Below are positions 325 through 12,834 of a DNA stretch of 40,423 nucleotides, piece by piece. The DNA lies in the IMG/VR virus record IMGVR_UViG_2713896906_000007, positions 1 to 40,423 of that record; one strand, given 5' to 3'. The number at the start of each line of letters is the position of its first letter. Within the stretch, counting starts at the first letter, position 1. Position numbers and translations under genes: made by a program. The notes under the pieces are model-generated. The model saw only the letters and a list, made by a program, of their open reading frames with translations. It searched no databases and was not told where the DNA came from. Source of the DNA: a virus. Its lineage: Duplodnaviria; Heunggongvirae; Uroviricota; Caudoviricetes.

Positions 325-1134
325 ATGACGCAAATTAGTGAACGATGGAAGCACAATGGCATTACTAAAGGTTATTGCAATATTTGTGGAAAATATGACT
401 TCCTCACAAAAGATCATGTTCCTCCAAAGTGCGCCATAACCTTAGGTCCTGTTCTTCAGAAAACAGTTAGCGAATTTTTTGGTGTTCAGGAACCAGTTAA
501 ACCATTAAATGCTAAAAACGGTTCTTATTTCAAAACCATTTGCAGCAACTGTAACAATAAGGTGTTAGGTGGACTCGACGTTGCAATTGAAAATGTAGCA
601 AAGTCCTTTAAAGAACAGTTGAGTCAATATATGAATGGTATGAATGTATATCCATTCATTAGAATACCTTTTGATAGCATATCTTTCACTAAGGCTATGA
701 TTGGACACGTGCTATCGGCAACTTCAGTTGAAGATTGTAAAAAAGAACCCGTAGATAGCCCCTTCTATACACCTTTAAAAGATTATGTTTTGGATAAAAA
801 TCCAAGTTTTGAGGAGACTCATGATATTTACTACTGGTTTTACCCACACAGAATGCACATATCAGCTCAAAGTGTAGCATTTATGAACGAAGGACATGTA
901 GCATTTATTTGTGCTTTACATTTTTTTCCTATCGGTTTTATTATCACAATTAAAAATGAAGGAATATACCCTGCCCACTCAACAAAATTAGAACTTGAAG
1001 ATAAATTCCTTACATTTAACATGACATCTGTAAATTATGAGTATACGACATTTCCATTTGTAAATCTTAAGGGAAACCAAATGTATGCTATAAGCAACGG
1101 CCATACATGTGTGAGTTATCCAATAATTAAGTGA
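325..1134 (+). CDS. Hypothetical cargo protein with N-terminal Cys-rich HNH-like motif and a ~180 aa C-terminal domain of unknown function
   Basis: ATG at 325 preceded by GAGGA with 5-nt spacing. N-terminus reads CNICGK-x8-DHVPPKC ... CSNCNN, resembling a zinc-ribbon HNH nuclease core. AT-rich composition unlike phage structural genes. Occupies the position of mcrA in K-12 e14. Confidence 0.6.
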   Translation: MTQISERWKHNGITKGYCNICGKYDFLTKDHVPPKCAITLGPVLQKTVSEFFGVQEPVKPLNAKNGSYFKTICSNCNNKVLGGLDVAIENVAKSFKEQLSQYMNGMNVYPFIRIPFDSISFTKAMIGHVLSATSVEDCKKEPVDSPFYTPLKDYVLDKNPSFEETHDIYYWFYPHRMHISAQSVAFMNEGHVAFICALHFFPIGFIITIKNEGIYPAHSTKLELEDKFLTFNMTSVNYEYTTFPFVNLKGNQMYAISNGHTCVSYPIIK

Positions 1135-1161
1135 CTGCCAGATCATACAATCGACGCATGT

Positions 1162-1509
1162 TCACTTTCTACATATACCATCTATAATGTCCGCTCTTGG
1201 CACGCAGGGGACCAACCAGCTGGTCCTCAGGTCCGATATGAGCGAGAAGCTGAAATTTGCAGTTGTTCCCAAAGTCGATGGAGGAATTTTTAACATTACC
1301 GTGTATTTATCAACGGAGAGCAGGTCACTCTCTATGGTTCTCGCATTATTTGTTAACAAAATAACATATTCTTTTGCTTCATCGATAGTATTGAATATCA
1401 TAACTTTCCCACTTAACATCGATATCTGCGGTAACTGATTAACACAAAGAAATTCATCCAATAGCAGAGAATAACTTTGAGTTTTAGATTTTAAAAAACC
1501 TTCATCCAT
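1162..1509 (-). CDS. Small hypothetical protein overlapping the 3' end of the PIN-TM gene; possibly co-transcribed
   Basis: ATG at 1507-1509 overlaps the PIN gene stop (1491-1493) by 19 nt. No homology recognised. A competing plus-strand ORF (1187..1438) covers the same DNA, so coding status is uncertain. Confidence 0.3.
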   Translation of the reverse strand: MDEGFLKSKTQSYSLLLDEFLCVNQLPQISMLSGKVMIFNTIDEAKEYVILLTNNARTIESDLLSVDKYTVMLKIPPSTLGTTANFSFSLISDLRTSWLVPCVPRADIIDGICRK

Positions 1510-2333
1510 AATGTTTCGAGTCTTGTGCCAATCACACCTTTTCCAATGTTATCCAGCCCTCGAACCATTGCGTATAAGCCACCTAATATTTGAATCCCTT
1601 CCTTTATACCTAAAGACGAATAGTCAAAAGTTGGAAAGAGGACGTAATAAGACATAATTACCCCAATACAAAACTCGAAAACTCCATAGGAAAGACGGAA
1701 ATTTTCTCTATACCAAAATAGTATGAGTCCTAAAACGGGCAAACCCACCATTGTCCCCCAAACTGTAATGGTAGATACCAGAACCTCTATATTGGAATAG
1801 ACGATGTTTGCGACTAGAGAAGCAAGCCCGCCGAGCGCAAAACTGGCTTTTAGGTAACGCTTTTGAGATGAAACAGCTTTTTCTGCTTTCTCTTCTATTT
1901 CTTTATTTAGAAAATCGCCTTTGCTTTCATTTATAAACTCAATGCCAGTCATAGATGTAATATTCCGACTAGCAAGAAAATAAGACAAGGCACGATCATT
2001 GGTCACGACGCAAGGAACTTCTTCTCCTTGCCGTTCTGCGTAAGAAATAGCTATTCGAGCAATATCAAAGTCTGCCCCAGTCAAACGCTGAGCATTTCTA
2101 TCGGATTGGAAGAGGTCGTTTTTTATTTTTTCAGGCGCTTCAACTATGAGCACACCAGCGGGAATTGACGAGGCCACTAAATCAGTAATATCTGACCATT
2201 TGTTGCTTTTCCCTCTATATGAAAGCTCATGCATCACAGCTCTTGGGATAACTAGCTTCCGATTTCCAGCTCTAGACAATATCTCCGGATGCTGCAATAA
2301 AACATTAGTATCAATTATGTATCTGCTTGGCAT
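1491..2333 (-). CDS. PIN-domain protein with C-terminal multi-pass transmembrane region
   Basis: N-terminal ~130 aa has PIN-like acidic motifs (IIDTNVLL ... VVTNDRAL). C-terminal ~120 aa has several long hydrophobic stretches. ATG at 2331-2333 with AGGGA 7 nt upstream. AT-rich. Confidence 0.65.
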   Translation of the reverse strand: MPSRYIIDTNVLLQHPEILSRAGNRKLVIPRAVMHELSYRGKSNKWSDITDLVASSIPAGVLIVEAPEKIKNDLFQSDRNAQRLTGADFDIARIAISYAERQGEEVPCVVTNDRALSYFLASRNITSMTGIEFINESKGDFLNKEIEEKAEKAVSSQKRYLKASFALGGLASLVANIVYSNIEVLVSTITVWGTMVGLPVLGLILFWYRENFRLSYGVFEFCIGVIMSYYVLFPTFDYSSLGIKEGIQILGGLYAMVRGLDNIGKGVIGTRLETLWMKVF

Positions 2334-2671: not shown

Positions 2672-3226
2672 TCATTTATCTCCGACCGGAAACTTCTTAT
2701 ACAGTGTCGATACACCAACATCATAGATGATCGCCACCTTCTGGCGAGGAATTCCTGCTGCAATTAATCGTCCGGCCTGCGCCCATTGTTCTGGTGTAAG
2801 TTTGGGACGACGTCCACCAATTCGTCCCTGTACGCGAGCAGCTTCCAGTCCGGCTTTTGTTCGTTCAACAATCAGTTCACGCTCCATTTCAGCCAGGGCA
2901 CCCATCACATGGAAGAAAAAACGCCCCATTGGTGTACTGGTATCAATTGAATCCGTCAGACTACGAAAGTTGATACCTCGTTCGCGCAGCTCTTCCACCA
3001 GCACGACAAGATGCCGCATGCTGCGACCGAGTCGATCCAGTTTCCAGACCACCAGAGTGTCACCTGCCGATAATGTCCTGAGCAGTTTTTTAAGTCCCGG
3101 CCTTTCGGACTTTGTACCGCTTATCTTGTCTTCAAAAATCAGCTCGCATCCTGCACAGTTCAGCGCATTACGTTGTAGATCTGTGTTCTGGTCATTTGTT
3201 GACACACGTACATAGCCAATAAGCAT
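2672..3226 (-). CDS. pin: Serine DNA invertase (Pin/Gin/Hin/Cin family)
   Basis: Protein MLIGYVRVSTNDQNTDLQ...DTLVVWKLDRLGRSMRHL...GGRRPKLT is near-identical in motif content to e14 PinE. Start moved to the ATG at 3224-3226 (GGGAG 8 nt upstream); the track ORF begins 12 codons earlier. Confidence 0.9.
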   Translation of the reverse strand: MLIGYVRVSTNDQNTDLQRNALNCAGCELIFEDKISGTKSERPGLKKLLRTLSAGDTLVVWKLDRLGRSMRHLVVLVEELRERGINFRSLTDSIDTSTPMGRFFFHVMGALAEMERELIVERTKAGLEAARVQGRIGGRRPKLTPEQWAQAGRLIAAGIPRQKVAIIYDVGVSTLYKKFPVGDK

Positions 3227-3281
3227 GGTAGATCTCCCTGACAAAAGCAGGAATGATGCCATTTGCTCGTTATTTCTGCAT

Positions 3282-3307
3282 TTTCATAAACGTTGGTTTG
3301 GGAGAAG
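3282..3307. repeat. Left crossover site of the Pin-invertible segment (gix/cix-like)
   Basis: ttggtttgggagaag at 3294-3308 is the exact reverse complement of 5201-5215. The core aaacc-NN-ggttt is typical of Gin/Cin/Pin sites. Lies just upstream of the pin start. Confidence 0.6.
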
Positions 3308-3666
3308 CGGCAAAACGGGATGTGGGGACAGGGGAAAATCAGATACCGGACATGACCTCTTTTGCCAGTGGTGATGGATGGATGAAATTACCCAACGGGA
3401 AAATCCTGCAATATGGTCGTGGTGCGGTTACGCCGACATTATCGACGCAAACAATGAGAATTACATTCAGCATCCCTTTCCCCAAAAAAGCGGACTGCGC
3501 CATGCTTACTCATTCTGGTGATGGCGGTGCGCCTTTAGGCGCTGGGCGAGGGTTCGTGATGACTGCAGAAGGCCCAACGTTAACCGACTTTAATTCTGCT
3601 TACAGAACGTCATCAACCAGCGACACGGTATCGATGAATTACAGTTGGTGGGCTGTTGGTGAGTAA
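3295..3666 (+). CDS. Alternative tail-fibre C-terminal variable cassette (promoterless in this orientation; fused to the constant N-terminus after inversion)
   Basis: In-frame GLGE codons at the crossover site followed by 124 codons. The track ORF 3253..3666 starts outside the invertible segment and is probably not translated as such. Confidence 0.55.
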   Translation, partial: GLGEAAKRDVGTGENQIPDMTSFASGDGWMKLPNGKILQYGRGAVTPTLSTQTMRITFSIPFPKKADCAMLTHSGDGGAPLGAGRGFVMTAEGPTLTDFNSAYRTSSTSDTVSMNYSWWAVGE

Positions 3667-3686
3667 TTTTATTCAGGGTGATTTAT

Positions 3687-4130
3687 ATGAACGAATATGT
3701 TTATAGCGCAAGGCATAATGCTTTTTTCCCTGTGGATATGATTGATAAATATAAATCAGAGGGATGGGATTTATCAGACGCTAAGGAAGTAAATCAAAAT
3801 ATTATCAGTGAGTTTATGGCTGAACCGCCACAAGGAAAAATCCGTATTGCCGGAGATGATGGGCTGCCTGCGTGGGCAGATATTCCGCCACCCACGCATG
3901 AAGAACTTATTGAAATTACTGAATCAGAAAGACAGCTACTAATTAACCAGGCCAACGAATACATGAACAGTAAGCAATGGCCCGGTAAAGCCGCTATTGG
4001 TCGTCTGAAAGATGATGAACTGGCGCAATATAATTTGTGGCTGGATTATCTGGACGCACTGGAACTGGTTGATTCCTCCAGTGCGCCAGATATTGAATGG
4101 CCTACGCCTCCGGCAGTTCAGGCCAGATGA
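3687..4130 (+). CDS. tfa: Tail fibre assembly protein (Tfa / Mu U-like), alternate-orientation copy
   Basis: ATG at 3687 with AGGGTG 6 nt upstream (track start at 3678 is GTG). C-terminus ...APDIEWPTPP mirrors that of the convergent tfa copy. Confidence 0.75.
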   Translation: MNEYVYSARHNAFFPVDMIDKYKSEGWDLSDAKEVNQNIISEFMAEPPQGKIRIAGDDGLPAWADIPPPTHEELIEITESERQLLINQANEYMNSKQWPGKAAIGRLKDDELAQYNLWLDYLDALELVDSSSAPDIEWPTPPAVQAR

Positions 4131-4704
4131 CATCCGGCGCGGTGCTGGTATCTGTTGCCGTCACCGCGTCAATGTAATCCAGCACAGCGTTAAGTCGGGT
4201 GGTTTCTGCCTGCGTCAGCTTCCGTCCGGCCTGTAGTTTCAGTTGAATCAGACTAATGGAAGCCATTGCTGCATCAATAAGTGACTGGCGCAGTGCTTCT
4301 GCCGCGTCTACTGCGGCATTATGCTGTGCCTCAGTATCTGTCACCCATTTCTCACCATCCCATTTATCGTATGGCGTTAATGGGGCGATAGTGGTTGTAT
4401 TATTAGGGTAATCACCCGGAGCTGTGATTTCTTTTGATTCTCCTGTTTCGGTGCTATAGATGATTTCACCGCGATGGTCTGGCACATATTCCCATGAGTT
4501 AAAATCTGCAGAACGGCAGATTGCATAACCAGCTTTATGTGTAACTGGTGCATCTAAACAAGAACATGCCGGGATACCGACGCCAACCGCAAGATATTCA
4601 GTTGATGTGGAAATATACTCCCGCGTTTCACCATCATAATTATAAATGGTAATGACTCCCGCTTTTATGGCAATGAGTTCGTTATTTAATACGGCTTTAT
4701 TCAT
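4102..4704 (-). CDS. tfa: Tail fibre assembly protein (Tfa), copy expressed in the current orientation
   Basis: Immediately follows the tail-fibre CDS on the minus strand (start overlaps the fibre stop). Tfa-like C-terminus ...APDVIWPELPEA. Overlaps the convergent tfa 3' end by 29 nt. Confidence 0.8.
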   Translation of the reverse strand: MNKAVLNNELIAIKAGVITIYNYDGETREYISTSTEYLAVGVGIPACSCLDAPVTHKAGYAICRSADFNSWEYVPDHRGEIIYSTETGESKEITAPGDYPNNTTTIAPLTPYDKWDGEKWVTDTEAQHNAAVDAAEALRQSLIDAAMASISLIQLKLQAGRKLTQAETTRLNAVLDYIDAVTATDTSTAPDVIWPELPEA

Positions 4705-5504
4705 CAGGCAGCCCTCACGATATAATTAAAGGCAATGTTACGAGGACGGTTTTCGTTTGCAGTTGGAACAATTCTTGAAGCATCAAGGCCAATCACTTTT
4801 GGGTAAACAGCGCCATCTGTTCTTTCTGTCACCATACTTCTGATTAAGGAGAAATAACTATTGTTCGTTGAGGGGTTCAAAGGCACCACTGCCCCCTTAA
4901 AAGAGCCTACTGATTCCCATATTGAATAATTTTCGGTGTTTACAGTCTTGAACTCACCATAGATATTACGTATGGCATCGCCCTGAGCGGATAATATTGC
5001 CCTCCCCGTATCCATACCACGTCCGTCATCCCAGCCACGAATAAACTCACCACGTAAATCAGGCAATTTATTTGTCGGGTAAGCCTTTGCCAGTTCCGGG
5101 TATTCTTCAGCAGAAAAAGCTGCTCCGTTGCATTTCAGCCAGCCTGTTGGCGGAGTGGCTGAGGGCCACGGAACAGGTACGCCAACAGGCAATGCTGAGC
5201 CTTCTCCCAAACCAAGGTTTTCGAGAGCCGTTTTCACCGTGCCATCCGATTTGATATCGCCAAACGGATTCTTGCGGCTTAACAGCAGCGCACGAAGCGC
5301 GGTAAGCAGCTGGTCATGCCGCCCCTTATCCAGGCTGGCACCGGATGCCTCCACCACGCTGCAGAGTTCTTCCTGCAACATGTCAAAGTAGTCATCATCC
5401 AGATCGGTGGCAGGTGTGCCGGTCTGGGGGTTACCACGGGTAAAACCGTTCTTACCCGCGCCGAACTTATCCTTCTGCGCGGTTTTCGTGTCTATACGAT
5501 GCAT
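4704..5504 (-). CDS. stf: Side tail fibre protein (constant N-terminus + invertible variable C-terminus)
   Basis: N-terminus [40 protein letters not shown] matches the e14 StfE/StfP constant region. The crossover site lies at codons 95-102. Confidence 0.8.
5202..5227. repeat. Right crossover site of the Pin-invertible segment, inside the tail-fibre gene at the constant/variable junction
   Basis: cttctcccaaaccaaggttttc sits in codons 95-102 (ENLGLGEG) of the tail-fibre CDS. It is a 15-bp perfect inverted repeat of 3294-3308. Confidence 0.6.
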
Positions 5505-8101: not shown

Positions 8102-9180
8102 CAGAACGGGTCCTCCTGTACTCTGGCTTTTTTCTTTTTCCGCGCGCCGGGATCTTCGGGTTCAGGCAGATAAGCATCAGGCGGGCCGACACGGATTTCC
8201 GTCAGGGTGCCGTTCTGGTCCTGAGTAAACGTGACTTCCGAAACAAGCAGTTCGGTATTGTCGAAACCACAGACCGGATCAAAGACAATCACCCGCTGGT
8301 TGGGCTGCCACAGCGTACCGTTACCCTGTCGCCAGCCCTGCACCACATAGGTGGTTTCATCCGTCCGCGCCGCCCGTTGTCGGGCTTCAAAGTCAGCACG
8401 CGCAATACAGCCTGCCCCCGTGGCCTGCCCTGTCTGCCTGATATACATCGGACGGTAACGGGCAATAAATGCGTCCTCTGTGCGGGCCCGCAGCGCGGTG
8501 GTGGTGGCCTCACCGAAATCATCGTCGTTTCCGGCACGCTGCCCCGCCACCTGGTAAACTGAAAACCGCTCCCGGATACTCTTCTCCGTATCGCAGGAAA
8601 GGATGTTTTCCCCGAGTACCAGCGCGGTATGTGCCCGCGTTGAGCCAATACCGCCAATCACCAGCCTGCCGTGCGGGTCGTCGTAAGCCAGTGCCTGCTG
8701 CTGACCGAGTATTTTGTTGATTACCTCAATCACCGTTTCACCGTGATCAGGCTGGACGTCAGGAATAACACCCGACGGCGCACCGTTGTTCACCACCTCA
8801 ATGCCGAAGGGCGCAGCAAGCGCCTGCGCAATCTGTACCAGCGATCGTCCGTTAAACTGTGTCGGTTCGGCTGCACAGTCAATCAGATCAGCGGTCAGAC
8901 TGCGTCCGGCAATACCGGTGCTGACCGAACGGGCATCGTAACGAACGGGCGTCGCCTCCACCCAGCCGGTGATCACCAGCTCATCACCAATCAGCACTTC
9001 CACTTTTGAACCGTTTTTAATGCGCGGCTGAAGCGTGGTGATACCCTCATCTCCCGGCCACTGGCGGGTGATCTCCACACTGAAATCCCGCGCCAGTCGT
9101 TCAACACCGGCACCGATGCGCACCGATGTCCAGCCATTCCACTCCCGGCCATTTACCCGTAACGTGACGTTATCGTTCAT
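8101..9180 (-). CDS. Baseplate hub / tail protein D-like (Mu gp44-like)
   Basis: 359 aa. Syntenic with Mu gene Q. Confidence 0.7.
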   Translation of the reverse strand: MNDNVTLRVNGREWNGWTSVRIGAGVERLARDFSVEITRQWPGDEGITTLQPRIKNGSKVEVLIGDELVITGWVEATPVRYDARSVSTGIAGRSLTADLIDCAAEPTQFNGRSLVQIAQALAAPFGIEVVNNGAPSGVIPDVQPDHGETVIEVINKILGQQQALAYDDPHGRLVIGGIGSTRAHTALVLGENILSCDTEKSIRERFSVYQVAGQRAGNDDDFGEATTTALRARTEDAFIARYRPMYIRQTGQATGAGCIARADFEARQRAARTDETTYVVQGWRQGNGTLWQPNQRVIVFDPVCGFDNTELLVSEVTFTQDQNGTLTEIRVGPPDAYLPEPEDPGARKKKKARVQEDPF

Positions 9181-10505
9181 TGCACTGGCACCTTCAGAGG
9201 GATCACCGGCACAAAGCCGGGATGCGTAATGGCATTACGCCGGATAATGTCCGCGTCACGCGCCGCGTTATCAAACCAGGTCGCCGCCAGCACCAGCGCG
9301 GGTAAAACCTCATCCGGCGTGCGCTGAATGATCCGCGCAGACTGTTCAAGGCGCATGTTGATATCCGCATTCAGATCTGCTTTCACCCGGCGCAGCGCCA
9401 GAAACAGCGCATCACTGGTTGTACGGGACAACTCCTTATCAATTGCCATATTCAGTGTGTCGCGAATGTCAGTCAGTTCTTCCCACGTCGGCAGGTCAAC
9501 CGTGTTTTTCACCGCCGGTGCATTGTTCAGTGCCGGATGCGTGACGGAAGGCCAGCCAGTGCTCTGCGCAGGTGTTGTTGCCTGCCCCACTGCGGCATTC
9601 TGCATCACCGCGGAAGTTGTTGGCGCAGGCAATCGGGTGACGGCATACGCCGCTTCGCTGATTGCGGTCGTACGAAGGGTGCTGGCAACCACGTTACGCT
9701 GCTGCGTAGCCGTGGCGGTGGTTTTACTGTCCGTTTTCCAGACGCCGCGCGGTTGCAGATCGCTGCCGAGGCTGACACCGGAAAGCGTTTTGATCATGGT
9801 GACCAGGTCGCTGGCGTTACCATAAAGGCGCTTCCCGGTACGCCACATTTTCTGCACTTGCTCAACGAAATTTTTGCCTGACGATGGCGGCGGCAGAAGT
9901 ACCGAGATATCCCCCTGCAACAGCCTGGCGGCATCCGATACGGCAGAATCCACCACTTTCATCGCATCAGAAACATACCCAAGCATTGTGCTGGCATTAC
10001 CGACGACGTCGTTCTGCACAAAATCTGCCACGCCATCGATACTGAAACCGCTGAAACTGTCACTGATGCAGTCATCCAGTGCAGAACAGGATGACATCAG
10101 CGTCTGTGCCGTCGCCGCACCTGATGTGGGGTAAGAGAGTTCTCCCGCTTCGACAAACTTCAGGTCAAAGCGGACAATACGCCCTTCATTCTTCGATGTG
10201 CTGACCCGAACTTCCCCGTCAACACAGACTTTCAGCTCACCGTAAGTCGGATGGACAAGCGTGCCGGGACCGGGTTTATTCAGCGCGTCAATCAGGCGAT
10301 CGCGCTGGTCAAAGCAGTCATCTCCCACCACATAAGCTGTGATGGACGGGCGAAAAGTGACTTTTCCCAGATCTTCGGTATAGGGCTTGTCACGGTTCGG
10401 GTATTCATGTGTTTCCACACGGCGACCGGTTCCCGCACTTTCTTCTTCAACCTTAAACGGCACACCGCGAAATGACGCGCCCTGAAGCCTGTCTTTCCAC
10501 GTCAT
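9177..10505 (-). CDS. DNA circulation protein (Mu gp43-like)
   Basis: Start reassigned to the ATG at 10503-10505 (MTWKDRLQ...) with GGAG 5 nt upstream. The track start at 10553 would lie inside the upstream terminator hairpin. Confidence 0.7.
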   Translation of the reverse strand: MTWKDRLQGASFRGVPFKVEEESAGTGRRVETHEYPNRDKPYTEDLGKVTFRPSITAYVVGDDCFDQRDRLIDALNKPGPGTLVHPTYGELKVCVDGEVRVSTSKNEGRIVRFDLKFVEAGELSYPTSGAATAQTLMSSCSALDDCISDSFSGFSIDGVADFVQNDVVGNASTMLGYVSDAMKVVDSAVSDAARLLQGDISVLLPPPSSGKNFVEQVQKMWRTGKRLYGNASDLVTMIKTLSGVSLGSDLQPRGVWKTDSKTTATATQQRNVVASTLRTTAISEAAYAVTRLPAPTTSAVMQNAAVGQATTPAQSTGWPSVTHPALNNAPAVKNTVDLPTWEELTDIRDTLNMAIDKELSRTTSDALFLALRRVKADLNADINMRLEQSARIIQRTPDEVLPALVLAATWFDNAARDADIIRRNAITHPGFVPVIPLKVPVQ

Positions 10506-10520
10506 ATAAACTCCGGATAT

Positions 10521-10542
10521 AAAAAAGCCCACCGAAGTGGGC
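10521..10542 (-). terminator. Rho-independent terminator after the PH-domain moron
   Basis: Minus strand reads GCCCAC-TTCG-GTGGGC followed by TTTTTT. Confidence 0.65.
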
Positions 10543-10568
10543 ATGAAAGACATAAATTAATGTAAGGT

Positions 10569-10946
10569 TTACCCTGCTATTTTTTGAGCCAGATGGGCCT
10601 GCAATTTATAAATGTTTGCTCCTTTACTGAACTGTTTTTTTATCGGTTCTGCAATACCAGAAATCCATATCTTCATTTCAGCATCAAGATCAAGATGCCC
10701 GGCGGTTTCAATAGAAAAGTTTGTCACAGATTTATATGGAATCGAACGATACTCGACTTTTTTCCCTGTGACACCCTGCTTATCAATAAAAATTAACCTT
10801 CTGTTAGTCAGAATAATTTGGTCACGAATGAGTTTATAGGCAAGTTCGACATTTTCTCCCTCACCTAAAACAGCCCCTAATTCCTGTTGTGCATCTGATG
10901 CATTAATTTCACCGGCATTACCTATAATGGCATGTAACAGACCCAT
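10569..10946 (-). CDS. Bacterial PH-domain protein (bPH_1-like), a moron inserted between tape measure and DNA-circulation genes
   Basis: 125 aa from the ATG at 10944-10946 (AAGGG upstream). The track ORF extends to 11027, overlapping the tape-measure 3' end. AT-rich, with its own terminator. Motifs TNRRLIF ... EYRSIPY are typical of the small bacterial PH fold. Confidence 0.55.
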   Translation of the reverse strand: MGLLHAIIGNAGEINASDAQQELGAVLGEGENVELAYKLIRDQIILTNRRLIFIDKQGVTGKKVEYRSIPYKSVTNFSIETAGHLDLDAEMKIWISGIAEPIKKQFSKGANIYKLQAHLAQKIAG

Positions 10947-10998
10947 AGATTTCCCTTCAGTTGATAACAAACTTAAAGACAAATTATATCTGGTTCCG

Positions 10999-12834
10999 TC
11001 ATCTGCCAATATGCGTATAGCCAACATCGTGATTTATATCAAAACCGCTGGATCGCGTTTCCATAACCCGCATCCCCGGAGGCGAATTCACAAAAGATAC
11101 CTTGATCTCACCATCAACTTTTGGCGCAGAAGCTTTGTTAATCATGAAGGGATTCGGGCCTGTGGCATTGGAGGCGTTGTTTGACTGAGCCGGATCCACC
11201 GCCGGATAAGGTGTGTATCCCCGCGCCGGTATTCCCGTCCCATAAGCATCATAAGCACCCGCGCCCCACTGCGCAGAGTTAATGGCATCGACCGTGTCAC
11301 CGGAACTGTCGGTAAACCACTCAATAATTGGCTTCAGCTTGTCCCACATATCCTGAAACCACTTAACAACCGGTCCCCAGTTATTGATCACCATCCCCAG
11401 CGGCGACCAGGCAAAAACCTTCTTAAGAAGTTCCCAGCCAGTCTCAAAATAAGGACCAATGGTTTCCCAGAGTTTCTTAAAATAAGGTCCGACAACATCC
11501 CAGTTAGTGATAATTAATCCCGCAGCCAGGGCTATCGCCGTCGCAATCATGCCAATCGGCGTCATCGACATGATCCTGCTGACAATACTGATGGCACTGC
11601 CCACGCCCATCAATCCCAGTTTCAGAATCGCAAGACCGGCAGCAAGCCCGACGACGCCGCGAATAACCCGGGGATTTTCATCCGCAAACTTCGTGAATTT
11701 TTCCCCCAACTCCCCCAGCCATTGCGTGATATTTTTAGCGTCACCAGAAAATGCGCCGCCAATAGCTGCAAGACCGTTAGTTGCGGTCCCCGTCATTGCC
11801 TCCCACAGGTTGGACAGCGTACCAAGCTGAGCCTGAACACGTTTATTCAGGCTGGCCTGTTTATTCATCTTCTGCTGGATCTGATCGTAGCCATCCTTTC
11901 CTTTATCGATCAGGGCATTGACCACCTGAAGGGTTTCGGCATCATCACCAAATATTGCCTTAAGTACGCCTGTTCGCTTAACGTCGGTCAGTTTTCGCAA
12001 CTTTGCCAGTTGCCTGAACATGTTATCAAGACCGCCAAAACTTCCTTTGCCGTCAGTAAAATCGAGCTGTACCCCGAGTTTCTGGCGGGCCATGACTTTA
12101 TTGACGTCCCTGATTTTCTTAACACTTAATCCAGACTGGATAACTTTTCGCAGGGCATTACCTGCCGACTCCCCGTTCATCCCCATCTGATCCATCATGA
12201 CGCTGATGGGGGAAAGGCTCTGTGCAGCCTGAAGACCGTCCTTGTTCACCATCTTCAGAACAGAACTGGTTTTAGTGAAGAAGGACAACATGTTGGTATC
12301 GTCAACGCCCAGATAAAACGCCTTCTGAATAGTGTCGAACAGCCCCATCATGTCTTCTGACGCCGTTCCGGTAGCATCCTGCATCTTTGCAGCAAACTCA
12401 GCAGCCGCTTCCGGTGTTTTTTTCAGTTGTACCGCAAGATAAGCTGTCGCTTTACCCACACCACCAAGAATGTTTTCTGCCGGGATCCCCTGACGCACCA
12501 GCATCTGCATCATGTTCTGGAAATCAGCCGTTGTACCGGGTAGCTGGTTACCCAGGCCAATAGCCAGTTTATTGATGTCCTGAAAGCTCTTTCCAACCTC
12601 GCCGTTCGCATCCATCATGGCGACTTTCAGCCCGGTGGCGGCGTTTTCCTGATCGGCATAAGATTTCAGGGAAAGCGTCAGACCCGCTGCCAGTCCGCCA
12701 CCAAGCGCCAGCCCACCCTGTGACGCTTCTTCCGCCTGGCGTTTAAATCCCCGGATTTTCTTTTGCATTTTCGACAGCGCGGGAGAAAGTCTGTCGACAC
12801 CGGTTATCAACGCCTTAAGCTCAAATTCAGCCAT
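10999..12834 (-). CDS. Tail tape measure protein
   Basis: 611 aa, Gly/Ala-rich with a hydrophobic central region. Lies between the chaperone and baseplate genes. Confidence 0.85.
   Translation of the reverse strand: MAEFELKALITGVDRLSPALSKMQKKIRGFKRQAEEASQGGLALGGGLAAGLTLSLKSYADQENAATGLKVAMMDANGEVGKSFQDINKLAIGLGNQLPGTTADFQNMMQMLVRQGIPAENILGGVGKATAYLAVQLKKTPEAAAEFAAKMQDATGTASEDMMGLFDTIQKAFYLGVDDTNMLSFFTKTSSVLKMVNKDGLQAAQSLSPISVMMDQMGMNGESAGNALRKVIQSGLSVKKIRDVNKVMARQKLGVQLDFTDGKGSFGGLDNMFRQLAKLRKLTDVKRTGVLKAIFGDDAETLQVVNALIDKGKDGYDQIQQKMNKQASLNKRVQAQLGTLSNLWEAMTGTATNGLAAIGGAFSGDAKNITQWLGELGEKFTKFADENPRVIRGVVGLAAGLAILKLGLMGVGSAISIVSRIMSMTPIGMIATAIALAAGLIITNWDVVGPYFKKLWETIGPYFETGWELLKKVFAWSPLGMVINNWGPVVKWFQDMWDKLKPIIEWFTDSSGDTVDAINSAQWGAGAYDAYGTGIPARGYTPYPAVDPAQSNNASNATGPNPFMINKASAPKVDGEIKVSFVNSPPGMRVMETRSSGFDINHDVGYTHIGR

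Follow-up and report, generated by a model that had tools for sequence, protein, structure and literature searches.

The window analysed here is the whole 40,423-nt stretch of IMG/VR record IMGVR_UViG_2713896906_000007, an SfV/SfI/SfII-like Escherichia coli prophage whose tail is of Mu type and whose antiterminator Q is lambdoid. A small gene specifying a bacterial PH-domain protein lies in its tail operon, between the genes for the tape measure protein and a protein resembling Mu gp43. The relevant features are as follows.

9177..10505, minus strand: Mu gp43-like DNA-circulation/baseplate hub protein, 442 aa (PF07157 and phrog_184); downstream flank
10521..10542, minus strand: intrinsic terminator, a GCCCAC-UUCG-GUGGGC stem-loop (10542..10527) with T6 (10526..10521); folding energy -11.8 kcal/mol
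10569..10946, minus strand: candidate moron ORF, a 125-aa bacterial PH-domain protein (PHb1/bPH_1, PF08000) with Pfam, PDB and PHROG matches
10952..10958, minus strand: putative ribosome-binding site GAAGGGA, Shine-Dalgarno-like, read from the sequence, 5 nt upstream of the PH-gene ATG
10983..11009, minus strand: predicted sigma-70 promoter, TTGGCA-15 nt-TATAAT, by match to consensus
10999..12834, minus strand: tail tape measure protein, 611 aa (PF10145 and phrog_28/17727); upstream flank
28331..28720, minus strand: antiterminator Q (PF06530, E 4e-51)

The PH ORF starts at ATG 10946, RefSeq annotates a 378-nt gene, and an equivalent of the ribosome-binding site, GGAAGGGGA, is kept in Edwardsiella phages. 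A longer reading of 152 aa from 11027 overlaps the 3' end of the tape-measure gene and is unsupported, because all homologues are about 125 aa long and start with MG(L/F)L. For gp43, the most likely start as judged from sequence context is ATG 10505, which has a Shine-Dalgarno motif (GGAG, 10514..10511) and is the RefSeq start in a near-identical prophage; it is preferred to the longest-ORF start, ATG 10553, which would read through the hairpin. Nothing supports structured RNAs in the intergenic stretches, as the whole window contains no Rfam family and no tRNA (ARAGORN).

The PH-domain protein and its homologues

The earlier note had described this ORF as AT-rich and as carrying motifs of a small bacterial PH domain, and both observations were borne out. 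Its GC content is 0.384 (0.368 for the cassette) versus 0.511 in the tape-measure gene and 0.561 in gp43. A profile search returned Pfam bPH_1 (PF08000) with an E value of 3.1e-48 and 163 bits (cut-off 27.7), as a single domain that spans residues 3-122 of 125 and profile positions 2-121 of 122. Structures 3DCX and 3HSA in the PDB also match (E 4e-39 and 1e-38, residues 1-121 covered), while the PHROG match, phrog_7115, is annotated 'unknown function'. PADLOC models gave no match at E values up to 0.1, and NCBIfam gave none. The protein has no signal peptide, hydrophobic N-terminus, TM helix or lipobox, in contrast to known exclusion (Sie) proteins, which are typically envelope-localised by a signal peptide, lipobox or TM helix; its homologues of known crystal structure are likewise soluble.

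The two structures are of Shewanella PHb1 proteins. According to Xu et al. (2010, PMC2817789), these assemble into C5 pentamers in the form of a dome, and their predicted ligand is another protein. They belong to the same family as the PH protein, are of similar length (117 and 126 versus 125 aa) and align over nearly the full length; the Shewanella genes are chromosomal whereas the PH gene is phage-borne and sits inside a tail operon. The eight residues of the conserved acidic site between subunits at which PHb1 proteins would bind their partner (D42, D55, Q57, K63, E80, D86, D88 and E90), together with the buried R50, are kept in the PH protein with the same numbering. By similarity to these structures (E about 1e-39), we infer that the protein forms a pentameric, dome-shaped ring.

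Cellular homologues with 60-65% identity occur across phyla (Clostridia, Bacilli, gamma-proteobacteria) outside prophages, which indicates that the molecular function is not phage-specific. They are solitary genes in housekeeping neighbourhoods that offer no functional clue, and no conserved partner gene was found around the chromosomal copies of Edaphovirga, Photobacterium and Clostridium. A further chromosomal homologue, L102, has genes for a KAP NTPase and a Tpt1-like protein in its vicinity. The family also includes YozO, which is controlled by sigma-W. Among the best 120 database matches there is no other homologue named as E. coli. A literature search for functional studies of PF08000, DUF1696, YozO, YvbH, YjqA or PH-domain morons gave nothing beyond the structure paper of 2010.

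Elsewhere among temperate phages, genes of the bPH_1 family tend to keep company with repressor and integrase genes. On 39 distinct viral contigs, which supplied 142 neighbour proteins, the commonest families are HTH_3 (14), Peptidase_M78 (8) and Phage_integrase (7). In phage ul36 and many IMG/VR contigs the gene is found beside an integrase, an ImmA-type protease and an HTH repressor, with Ltp lipoprotein genes among the neighbours; the order in ul36, on one strand, is cI, metalloprotease, ORF355, PH, int. The slot between integrase and repressor in lactococcal and streptococcal phages commonly holds exclusion genes of the Ltp or Sie type. In a Vibrio P2-like phage (L012) the PH gene (45% identical) follows cI and is itself followed by a gene for a SIR2-like protein of 612 aa and then by int; the SIR2-like protein matches the PADLOC models Aga_SIR2 and PDC-S65. 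Members of DUF1696/PF08000 have already been noted in the lysogeny modules of ul36 and Min1 (PMC2817789). The gene of the window is placed in the tail operon, not in a lysogeny module.

Occupancy and structure of the tape-measure/gp43 junction

The earlier note had claimed that a normally tight junction of Mu-like tail genes is interrupted at this point, and comparison with relatives agrees. The gap between the two genes is 24 nt in SfIV and 63 nt in SfII, SfI, SfV and 56 of 80 close IMG/VR relatives, against 493 nt in the window. The PH gene is absent from SfV, SfI, SfII and SfIV and from all 80 of those relatives (0/80). It occurs in 28 of 5426 E. coli genomes, about 1097 (about 1100) of which have the junction, so that it occupies roughly 2.5% of E. 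coli junctions; most are empty. SfV-like prophages with this junction are present in about one-fifth of complete E. coli genomes. The gene is dispensable for the backbone, as SfV, SfI and SfII do without it and IS1 splits it in four genomes. Conservation in all Mu-like tail modules, which the earlier note had set against its moron reading, is thus not what was found.

Other E. coli junctions hold one of at least five unrelated, AT-rich single-gene cassettes, so that at least six alternative cargo genes are known at the site; the other cargos include the following.

Alternative cargo at the junction: 170-aa signal-peptide protein
Alternative cargo at the junction: 225-aa lipoprotein
Alternative cargo at the junction: 176-aa protein with a TM helix
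Alternative cargo at the junction: 162-aa signal-peptide protein
Alternative cargo at the junction, opposite strand: membrane-anchored OB-fold protein

All of these cargos have a GC content of 31-42% and a hairpin terminator of their own, and cargo counts in E. coli genomes were 178, 85, 72 and 55. The five proteins carry envelope signals, in contrast to the PH protein, and PADLOC and Pfam scans of them were empty except for a tRNA_anti-like match of the OB-fold protein. A junction that is either empty or filled by varied, unrelated cassettes is a moron hotspot.

The terminator was claimed by the earlier note as a strong one belonging to the gene itself. The hairpin, the T6 tract and the folding energy are as described, and the element lies 3' of the PH gene and abuts the gp43 Shine-Dalgarno motif. 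In Edwardsiella phages the hairpin and T-tract are identical at 22 of 22 nt while the flanks are about 70-79% identical, which argues that the terminator is constrained. Exclusive ownership did not hold, however: empty SfII-type junctions carry a near-identical sister hairpin with a compensatory outer pair, so that this type of terminator is not exclusively that of the PH cassette and may be a backbone element or a scar. Under the 'scar' idea, the empty SfII-type junctions would have arisen from the PH cassette by deletion, but the spacers resemble each other weakly: 4% of shuffles attain their alignment score, and comparable scores are obtained with other AT-rich spacers. A generic terminator scan of the region returned four sites versus 4.5 expected from shuffles, i.e., no excess.

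Upstream, the predicted -35 hexamer falls within the final tape-measure codons and the -10 hexamer sits 11 nt past the tape-measure stop. Nowhere else in the 40-kb window is an exact TATAAT combined with a match of at least 5/6 to the -35 consensus; shuffles give 0.78 such sites per window. The 15-nt spacer is suboptimal, there is no extended -10, and a standard scan (spacers of 16-18 nt) missed the site. Edwardsiella phage EPP-1 and L100, in which the stretch is non-coding, retain the two hexamers at the same spacing. Consensus scans of the other cargo cassettes gave a well-placed site in one of four (the 176-aa cargo), with counts equal to or below those of shuffles, and do not establish that each cargo cassette would have its own promoter.

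EPP-1 is a plaque-forming phage (PMC11043334), and it retains the PH gene. The two copies share 88.8% amino-acid and 78.6% nucleotide identity, and the flanks share 70-72%. The comparison gives a pN/pS of 0.08 with saturation of the synonymous sites; pN/pS is reported because the Nei-Gojobori dS is not correctable at such sites. Low pN/pS, saturated synonymous sites and equally diverged flanks together indicate long retention under strong purifying selection, and, with flanks as diverged as these, the gene is an old resident rather than a recent insertion.

A proposed lysogen-expressed cassette and its alternatives

The PH gene is best read as a classical phage moron, that is, an accessory cassette expressed in the lysogen and carried by an SfV-like prophage in its late tail operon, at a junction prone to recombination (probability about 0.6). 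The locus has extra DNA between genes that are adjacent in relatives, a deviant base composition and a terminator of its own, the last with the reservation that a sister hairpin stands at empty junctions. The earlier note had arrived at the same reading, and the deviant GC content, the constrained terminator, the promoter-like site and the presence at 28 of about 1097 junctions lend it support. A single-gene cassette would have been acquired horizontally into the junction. In the lysogen, the weak sigma-70 promoter straddling the tape-measure stop would transcribe the PH gene alone, and the UUCG hairpin would keep transcription out of the baseplate genes. Late expression is Q-dependent in SfIV, SfII and SfV (PMC3851460), and since the prophage encodes Q, late transcription should be able to cross a terminator within the tail operon. 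In the lytic phase, RNA polymerase that has been modified by Q and comes from the late promoter would ignore the hairpin, and tail gene expression would, on this proposal, be unaffected. The product would be a soluble, probably membrane-proximal pentameric ring that is not part of the virion and binds a partner protein through acidic inter-subunit sites. The weakest step is the benefit to the lysogen, for which protection against a superinfecting phage or against envelope stress seems the likeliest; superinfection exclusion or host modulation, as proposed in the earlier note, is a guess.

Two experimentally studied morons offer precedents. The gp15 moron of HK97 adjoins the tape-measure gene and excludes superinfection (PMC3594210). 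Like the PH gene, gp15 is a single small gene in a Q-antiterminated tail operon beside the tape-measure gene, is absent from close relatives, deviates in GC content and has its source in a family of cellular genes. This founding moron is expressed from the prophage, in work reportedly by Juhala et al. (2000) and Cumby et al. (2012). It differs in lying upstream of the tape-measure gene, where the PH gene lies downstream, and in encoding a small YebO-family protein of the inner membrane for which exclusion has been demonstrated, whereas the PH protein is a predicted soluble ring. Tab of the Pseudomonas phage JBD26 is a late-operon moron expressed constitutively from the prophage and was shown experimentally to target the tape measure of invading phages (PMC10884400). 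Tab and the PH gene are both small morons in late structural operons, and JBD26 is a Mu-like temperate phage; Tab, however, lies between terminase genes and has no sequence relation to the PH gene. The example of Tab makes clear that a moron in a late operon can serve in defence.

Because the PH gene is co-oriented with the late operon it is necessarily also transcribed late, and its product could work in the lytic phase. The protein might be a late accessory made only from the Q-dependent transcript, of use to the phage in entry or lytic growth, whether as a binder of gp43 or the tape measure, as an aid to assembly or as a counter-defence protein, with the hairpin as a backbone element. The position of the gene directly between those for tape measure and gp43, the hairpin of the same type at empty junctions, the weak promoter evidence and the retention of the gene in plaque-forming EPP-1 (PMC11043334) would all fit. 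Yet more than 95% of near-identical tail modules assemble without it and IS1 disruption is tolerated; one alternative cargo, being on the opposite strand, cannot be a late-operon gene; and the family elsewhere tends toward repressor and integrase genes, not late operons, and has cellular members of 60-65% identity outside prophages. On balance this explanation is unlikely. Rarity (28 genomes), the IS1-disrupted copies, the lack of a defence or other family match beyond the PH domain and the commonness of cellular homologues could instead suggest a selfish or neutral passenger from a gamma-proteobacterial chromosome, carried by recombination at an insertion-tolerant junction. A passenger is hard to reconcile with a pN/pS of 0.08 at saturated synonymous sites between equally diverged flanks, or with intact binding-site residues and conserved hairpin and promoter hexamers, and is judged quite improbable. 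The same low standing is given to the idea of a multi-gene defence system that has its effector elsewhere and in which the PH protein would act as the sensor or adaptor half. The pairing with a SIR2-like gene in the Vibrio phage and the KAP NTPase and Tpt1-like genes near one chromosomal homologue point that way, but SIR2 pairing was seen in one phage only, and the window and all SfV-like relatives have a single-gene cassette, flanked by structural genes on both sides, with no effector nearby. Furthermore, the Q region of L017, another prophage with the PH gene, differs from that of the window (the Q proteins are 48% identical), so that none of the cargo in that region co-varies with the gene.

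Within the moron reading, a more specific and doubtful proposal, though somewhat less so than those alternatives, is that the PHb1 ring is a prophage protection factor acting from the cytoplasmic side. An acidic pentameric cap, placed repeatedly in lysogen-expressed slots of phages of Gram-positive and Gram-negative hosts, would bind a component of the incoming phage and neutralise it. Such a target may be a basic segment of a tape-measure or pilot protein on its ejection, or some other protein that attacks the envelope.

Implications

The PH moron and the hotspot extend current concepts and change none of them. Structures of PF08000 proteins have been available since 2010, and the phage-borne E. 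coli copy, being dispensable and strongly conserved by selection, provides a convenient gain-of-function handle on the role of the family. The cargo hotspot, being present in prophages of about one-fifth of complete E. coli genomes, is a cheap source of candidate exclusion or conversion genes, none of its cargos having matched a known defence model. If the PH ring does act as a protection factor, the cellular PF08000 family, which is widespread and strongly conserved, would have an envelope-defence role too, and a first function could be assigned to the family through this prophage in the simple setting of E. coli.

The PH gene and the signals at its junction

The window carries its tail genes on the minus strand, and at the remaining tail-gene junctions neighbouring genes overlap by a few bases. 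As the earlier note had described, an AT-rich ORF of 125 codons interrupts this tight coupling between the tape-measure and gp43-like genes, and the order tape measure, PH gene, gp43 holds in all annotated PH-carrying loci that were compared. The features of the junction, in the order of transcription, are:

10999..12834 (-), tail tape measure gene (PF10145, phrog_28)
11009..11004 (-), predicted promoter -35 hexamer TTGGCA, within the last tape-measure codons
10988..10983 (-), predicted promoter -10 hexamer TATAAT, 15 nt after TTGGCA
10569..10946 (-), PH gene, 378-nt ORF with an ATG start and GAAGGGA ahead of it
10542..10521 (-), hairpin GCCCAC-UUCG-GUGGGC plus six U, abutting the gp43 Shine-Dalgarno GGAG
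9177..10505 (-), Mu gp43-like DNA-circulation/baseplate-hub gene (PF07157, phrog_184)

Spacers of 52 nt and 26 nt separate the PH ORF from the tape-measure gene and the hairpin, respectively, and the GC content of the insert is 0.37-0.38 compared with 0.51-0.56 in the flanks. The same junction measures 63 nt in SfV, SfI, SfII and most E. coli relatives, and 24 nt in SfIV. The start of gp43 is best placed at ATG 10505, in agreement with the RefSeq annotation of a near-identical prophage; the longest ORF, starting at 10553, passes through the hairpin.

The E. coli and Edwardsiella cassettes agree at 22/22 nt of the hairpin and its T-tract, while the neighbouring non-coding DNA differs. At about 78% background identity this agreement has a chance probability of roughly 0.004 (rough arithmetic) and is therefore taken to reflect constraint. 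The hairpin had been noted previously as the PH gene's own terminator, and that attribution stands only in part. SfII-type junctions lacking a cargo gene (L001:2216-2254 in SfII, and 56 empty IMG/VR loci) hold a terminator-like sister hairpin within the tail operon, UCCCAC-UCCG-GUGGGA plus U6, in which the outer pair is altered on both sides (a compensatory change) and which GenBank annotates as a terminator. The terminator is thus real and conserved, yet the PH gene does not have it to itself. The gene may have entered upstream of a hairpin already in place, or the empty junctions may be scars left by deletion; the spacers of the two kinds of junction resemble each other too weakly to choose.

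Across the 40 kb of the window, TTGGCA-15 nt-TATAAT alone combines a perfect -10 with a -35 that matches at 5/6 positions or more (block shuffles gave 0.78 such sites per window). Edwardsiella phages, in which this stretch does not encode protein, keep both hexamers and the distance between them, while the spacer bases vary. A standard promoter scan of the window did not report the site, the 15-nt spacer is suboptimal, and a consensus promoter was well placed in only one of four other cargo cassettes scanned; as a predicted promoter of the PH gene it is suggestive only. In lambdoid phages, Q-modified polymerase passes intrinsic terminators, and because of this read-through a terminator within the tail operon is no obstacle to lytic growth. 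Late expression is Q-dependent in the SfV/SfI/SfII group according to the SfIV genome paper (PMC3851460).

Occupancy of the junction in related phages

A 2.2-kb query spanning the junction matched 1097 of 5426 complete E. coli genomes, only 28 of which contained the PH segment, so the gene is not universally conserved at this position. The IMG/VR sample comprised 80 contigs with gp43 98-99% identical to that of the window, and the junction was classified in 79. It was empty in 56, and the others carried a 176-aa protein bearing a membrane helix at its N-terminus (13 contigs), a 170-aa signal-peptide protein (9) or a 225-aa lipoprotein (1); the PH gene occupied none of the 79. Relatives also carry two other cargoes: an OB-fold (tRNA_anti-like) protein that is membrane-anchored and encoded on the opposite strand, and, in a phage whose tape measure is of the SfIV type, a 162-aa signal-peptide protein. 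The five unrelated single-gene cassettes (L021:2918-3448; L002:2297-2809 (-); L005:2260-2937 (-); L004:2317-2763 (+); L008:3808-4296 (-)) thus comprise genes for one TM-helix protein, one lipoprotein, two signal-peptide proteins and the OB-fold protein.

Four of these cargoes were counted in complete E. coli genomes (the 162-aa protein was left out): the 176-aa protein occurs in 178, the 170-aa protein in 85, the OB-fold protein in 72 and the lipoprotein in 55, numbers that record gene presence, with location at the junction confirmed in example loci and the IMG/VR set only. Every cargo is AT-rich (GC 0.31-0.42) and is followed by its own, differing hairpin and T-run, which in co-oriented cassettes lies just ahead of the gp43 ribosome-binding site, whereas that of the reversed OB-fold cassette adjoins the tape-measure stop. 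Being reversed, the OB-fold cargo must have its own promoter, and the site therefore hosts autonomous units. The tape-measure/gp43 junction of SfV-like phages is a multi-cargo hotspot. The non-PH cargoes are all envelope proteins, of a kind typical for exclusion functions; none of the five matched in a PADLOC scan, and they are candidate exclusion or conversion genes. One PH-carrying tail module is found in a 70-kb record with a plasmid annotation (pMTY18781-3, NZ_AP023208.1); the record could represent a phage-plasmid, a prophage that has excised, or an artefact of assembly.

Other genes of the prophage

The window covers nearly all of a temperate phage from the SfV/SfI/SfII group, whose members infect Shigella and E. 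coli and combine a Mu-type tail with lambdoid control. Its head and tail genes lead into an apparently invertible tail-fibre module; the genes of that module and the others recognised are:

39260..40423, integrase
34593..35285, S24 repressor
28331..28720 (-), antiterminator Q (PF06530, E 4e-51)
27651..28175 (+), Blc-like lipocalin
26499..27458 (-), DUF1722 plus 2-thiouracil-desulfurase-like protein
25416..26156 (-), AraC-family regulator
24050..25316, holin (25011..25316, -), lysozyme and Rz
4704..5504 (-), collar-domain fibre gene
3678..4130 (+) and 4102..4704 (-), tail-fibre assembly genes in opposite orientations
3253..3666 (+), alternative fibre C-terminus
2672..3262 (-), serine invertase (Resolvase and HTH_7)
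1491..2333 (-), PIN_4-domain protein, overlapping the next ORF
1162..1509 (-), 115-aa ORF, no Pfam match
325..1134 (+), 269-aa ORF, no Pfam match

The module at 2672..5504 looks like the Mu G-segment or e14 pin type. Beyond the invertase, the prophage end (325..2333) may hold another cargo or a toxin-like pair; a PADLOC scan of its three genes gave no match. Three non-phage-like genes lie in the Q-to-holin interval (25416..28175), the slot in which lambdoid phages hold cargo such as stx, and they likewise had no PADLOC match (0/3). A related PH-carrying prophage (L017) has other genes in that interval and also differs from the window between Rz and the HNH/terminase genes, where the window encodes a 202-aa DUF2441 protein (23336..23944, -).

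Conservation, family and likely role of the PH gene

A profile search confirmed the supposed PH domain with a full-length match of the protein to Pfam bPH_1 (PF08000), at 163 bits and E 3.1e-48. It falls in phrog_7115 ('unknown function') and matches two Shewanella crystal structures (3DCX, residues 9-120, E 4e-39; 3HSA, residues 1-121, E 1e-38). The crystallised proteins are dome-shaped C5 pentamers with a conserved, mostly acidic site formed by two adjacent subunits and predicted to bind a protein partner, not lipid (Xu et al. 2010, PMC2817789). All eight site residues (D42, D55, Q57, K63, E80, D86, D88, E90) and the buried R50 are kept at identical numbering, which places the protein, by sequence, in PF08000 group 1. 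No signal peptide or membrane helix was found in it, NCBIfam and PADLOC model scans returned no match, and it is outside every catalogued defence family.

IS1 splits the PH gene at one shared position in four E. coli genomes (L010:4025-5178 in EC_J_9, and three others), probably a single event that has since spread, and the flanking tail genes are annotated as complete. The gene also occupies the same junction in the plaque-forming Edwardsiella phage EPP-1 and in an Edwardsiella-type prophage. The window and EPP-1 copies share 88.8% amino acid but only 78.6% nucleotide identity (pN 0.061, pS 0.77 and saturated, pN/pS 0.08), and the flanking tail genes are 70-72% identical; the cassette has therefore long co-diverged with the phage under purifying selection and is neither a fresh nor a decaying insertion. 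EPP-1 (L009:3905-3950) and the Edwardsiella-type prophage (L100) also contain, between their own tape-measure stop and the PH gene that closely follows, a relic of some 45 non-coding nt with homology to the 3' end of the E. coli-type tape measure. This relic is a footprint of cassette exchange through recombination in the flank, and the homology indicates that the cassette moved or stayed together with that flank.

The family is strongly conserved: Photobacterium, Clostridium, Paenibacillus and Bacillus proteins are 60-66% identical to the window protein. Chromosomal copies are solitary, in unrelated housekeeping neighbourhoods (one near KAP-NTPase and Tpt1-like genes), and B. subtilis YozO is under sigma-W control (cited in PMC2817789). 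Lactococcus phage ul36 encodes cI, an ImmA-type protease, ORF355, PH and int on one strand. The lysogeny operon of a P2-like Vibrio phage (10N.286.45.B12_PE001, L012:3240-7402) contains cI, a bPH_1 protein (45% identical to that of the window), a 612-aa SIR2-like protein with PADLOC Aga_SIR2 and PDC-S65 matches, and integrase; this could be a PH and SIR2 pairing in a P2-type defence hotspot. Among 142 PH-neighbour proteins from 39 distinct non-SfV viral contigs, the top Pfam families were HTH_3 (14), Peptidase_M78 (8) and Phage_integrase (7); smaller counts came from Peptidase_S24 (3) and Ltp (2), a family of exclusion lipoproteins. Integrase and ImmA neighbours exceed the random phage gene expectation of about 2-3 (a rough estimate), counts that boundary errors may inflate, as some contigs are predicted prophages with the PH gene at the very edge. 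Temperate phages have repeatedly placed the PH gene at sites of probable lysogen expression.

Insertion, deviant base composition and a terminator (of a type also found at empty junctions) argue for a moron with a non-structural role, to which we assign a probability of about 0.85; its promoter is predicted only. In the lysogen, a weak constitutive promoter would yield a monocistronic PH mRNA ending at the hairpin, which would keep the baseplate genes silent. Upon induction, Q-modified polymerase would pass the hairpin, leaving the tail operon unaffected and transcribing the PH gene late as well. The product would be a soluble pentameric ring binding a partner protein via its acidic inter-subunit sites, and the lysogen would plausibly gain phage exclusion or envelope-stress tolerance; a specifically protective function is a tentative reading, less likely than not.

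That the product acts during late expression, as a phage accessory, is considered unlikely. Less probable still is a neutral passenger, which the pN/pS contradicts, and we give as little weight to the gene being one half of a multi-gene defence system, since the cassette in the window is a single gene.

HK97 gp15, beside the tape-measure gene (PMC3594210), and JBD26 Tab, within the late operon (PMC10884400), are proven precedents, and PF08000 members in phage lysogeny modules have already been reported (Xu et al. 2010, PMC2817789). New are the tail-operon location of a PF08000 gene, the multi-cargo hotspot at the SfV-like junction, and the evidence that purifying selection has long acted on a phage-borne copy that is dispensable. 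The main value of the finding is that it opens a conserved protein family without an assigned function to experiment.
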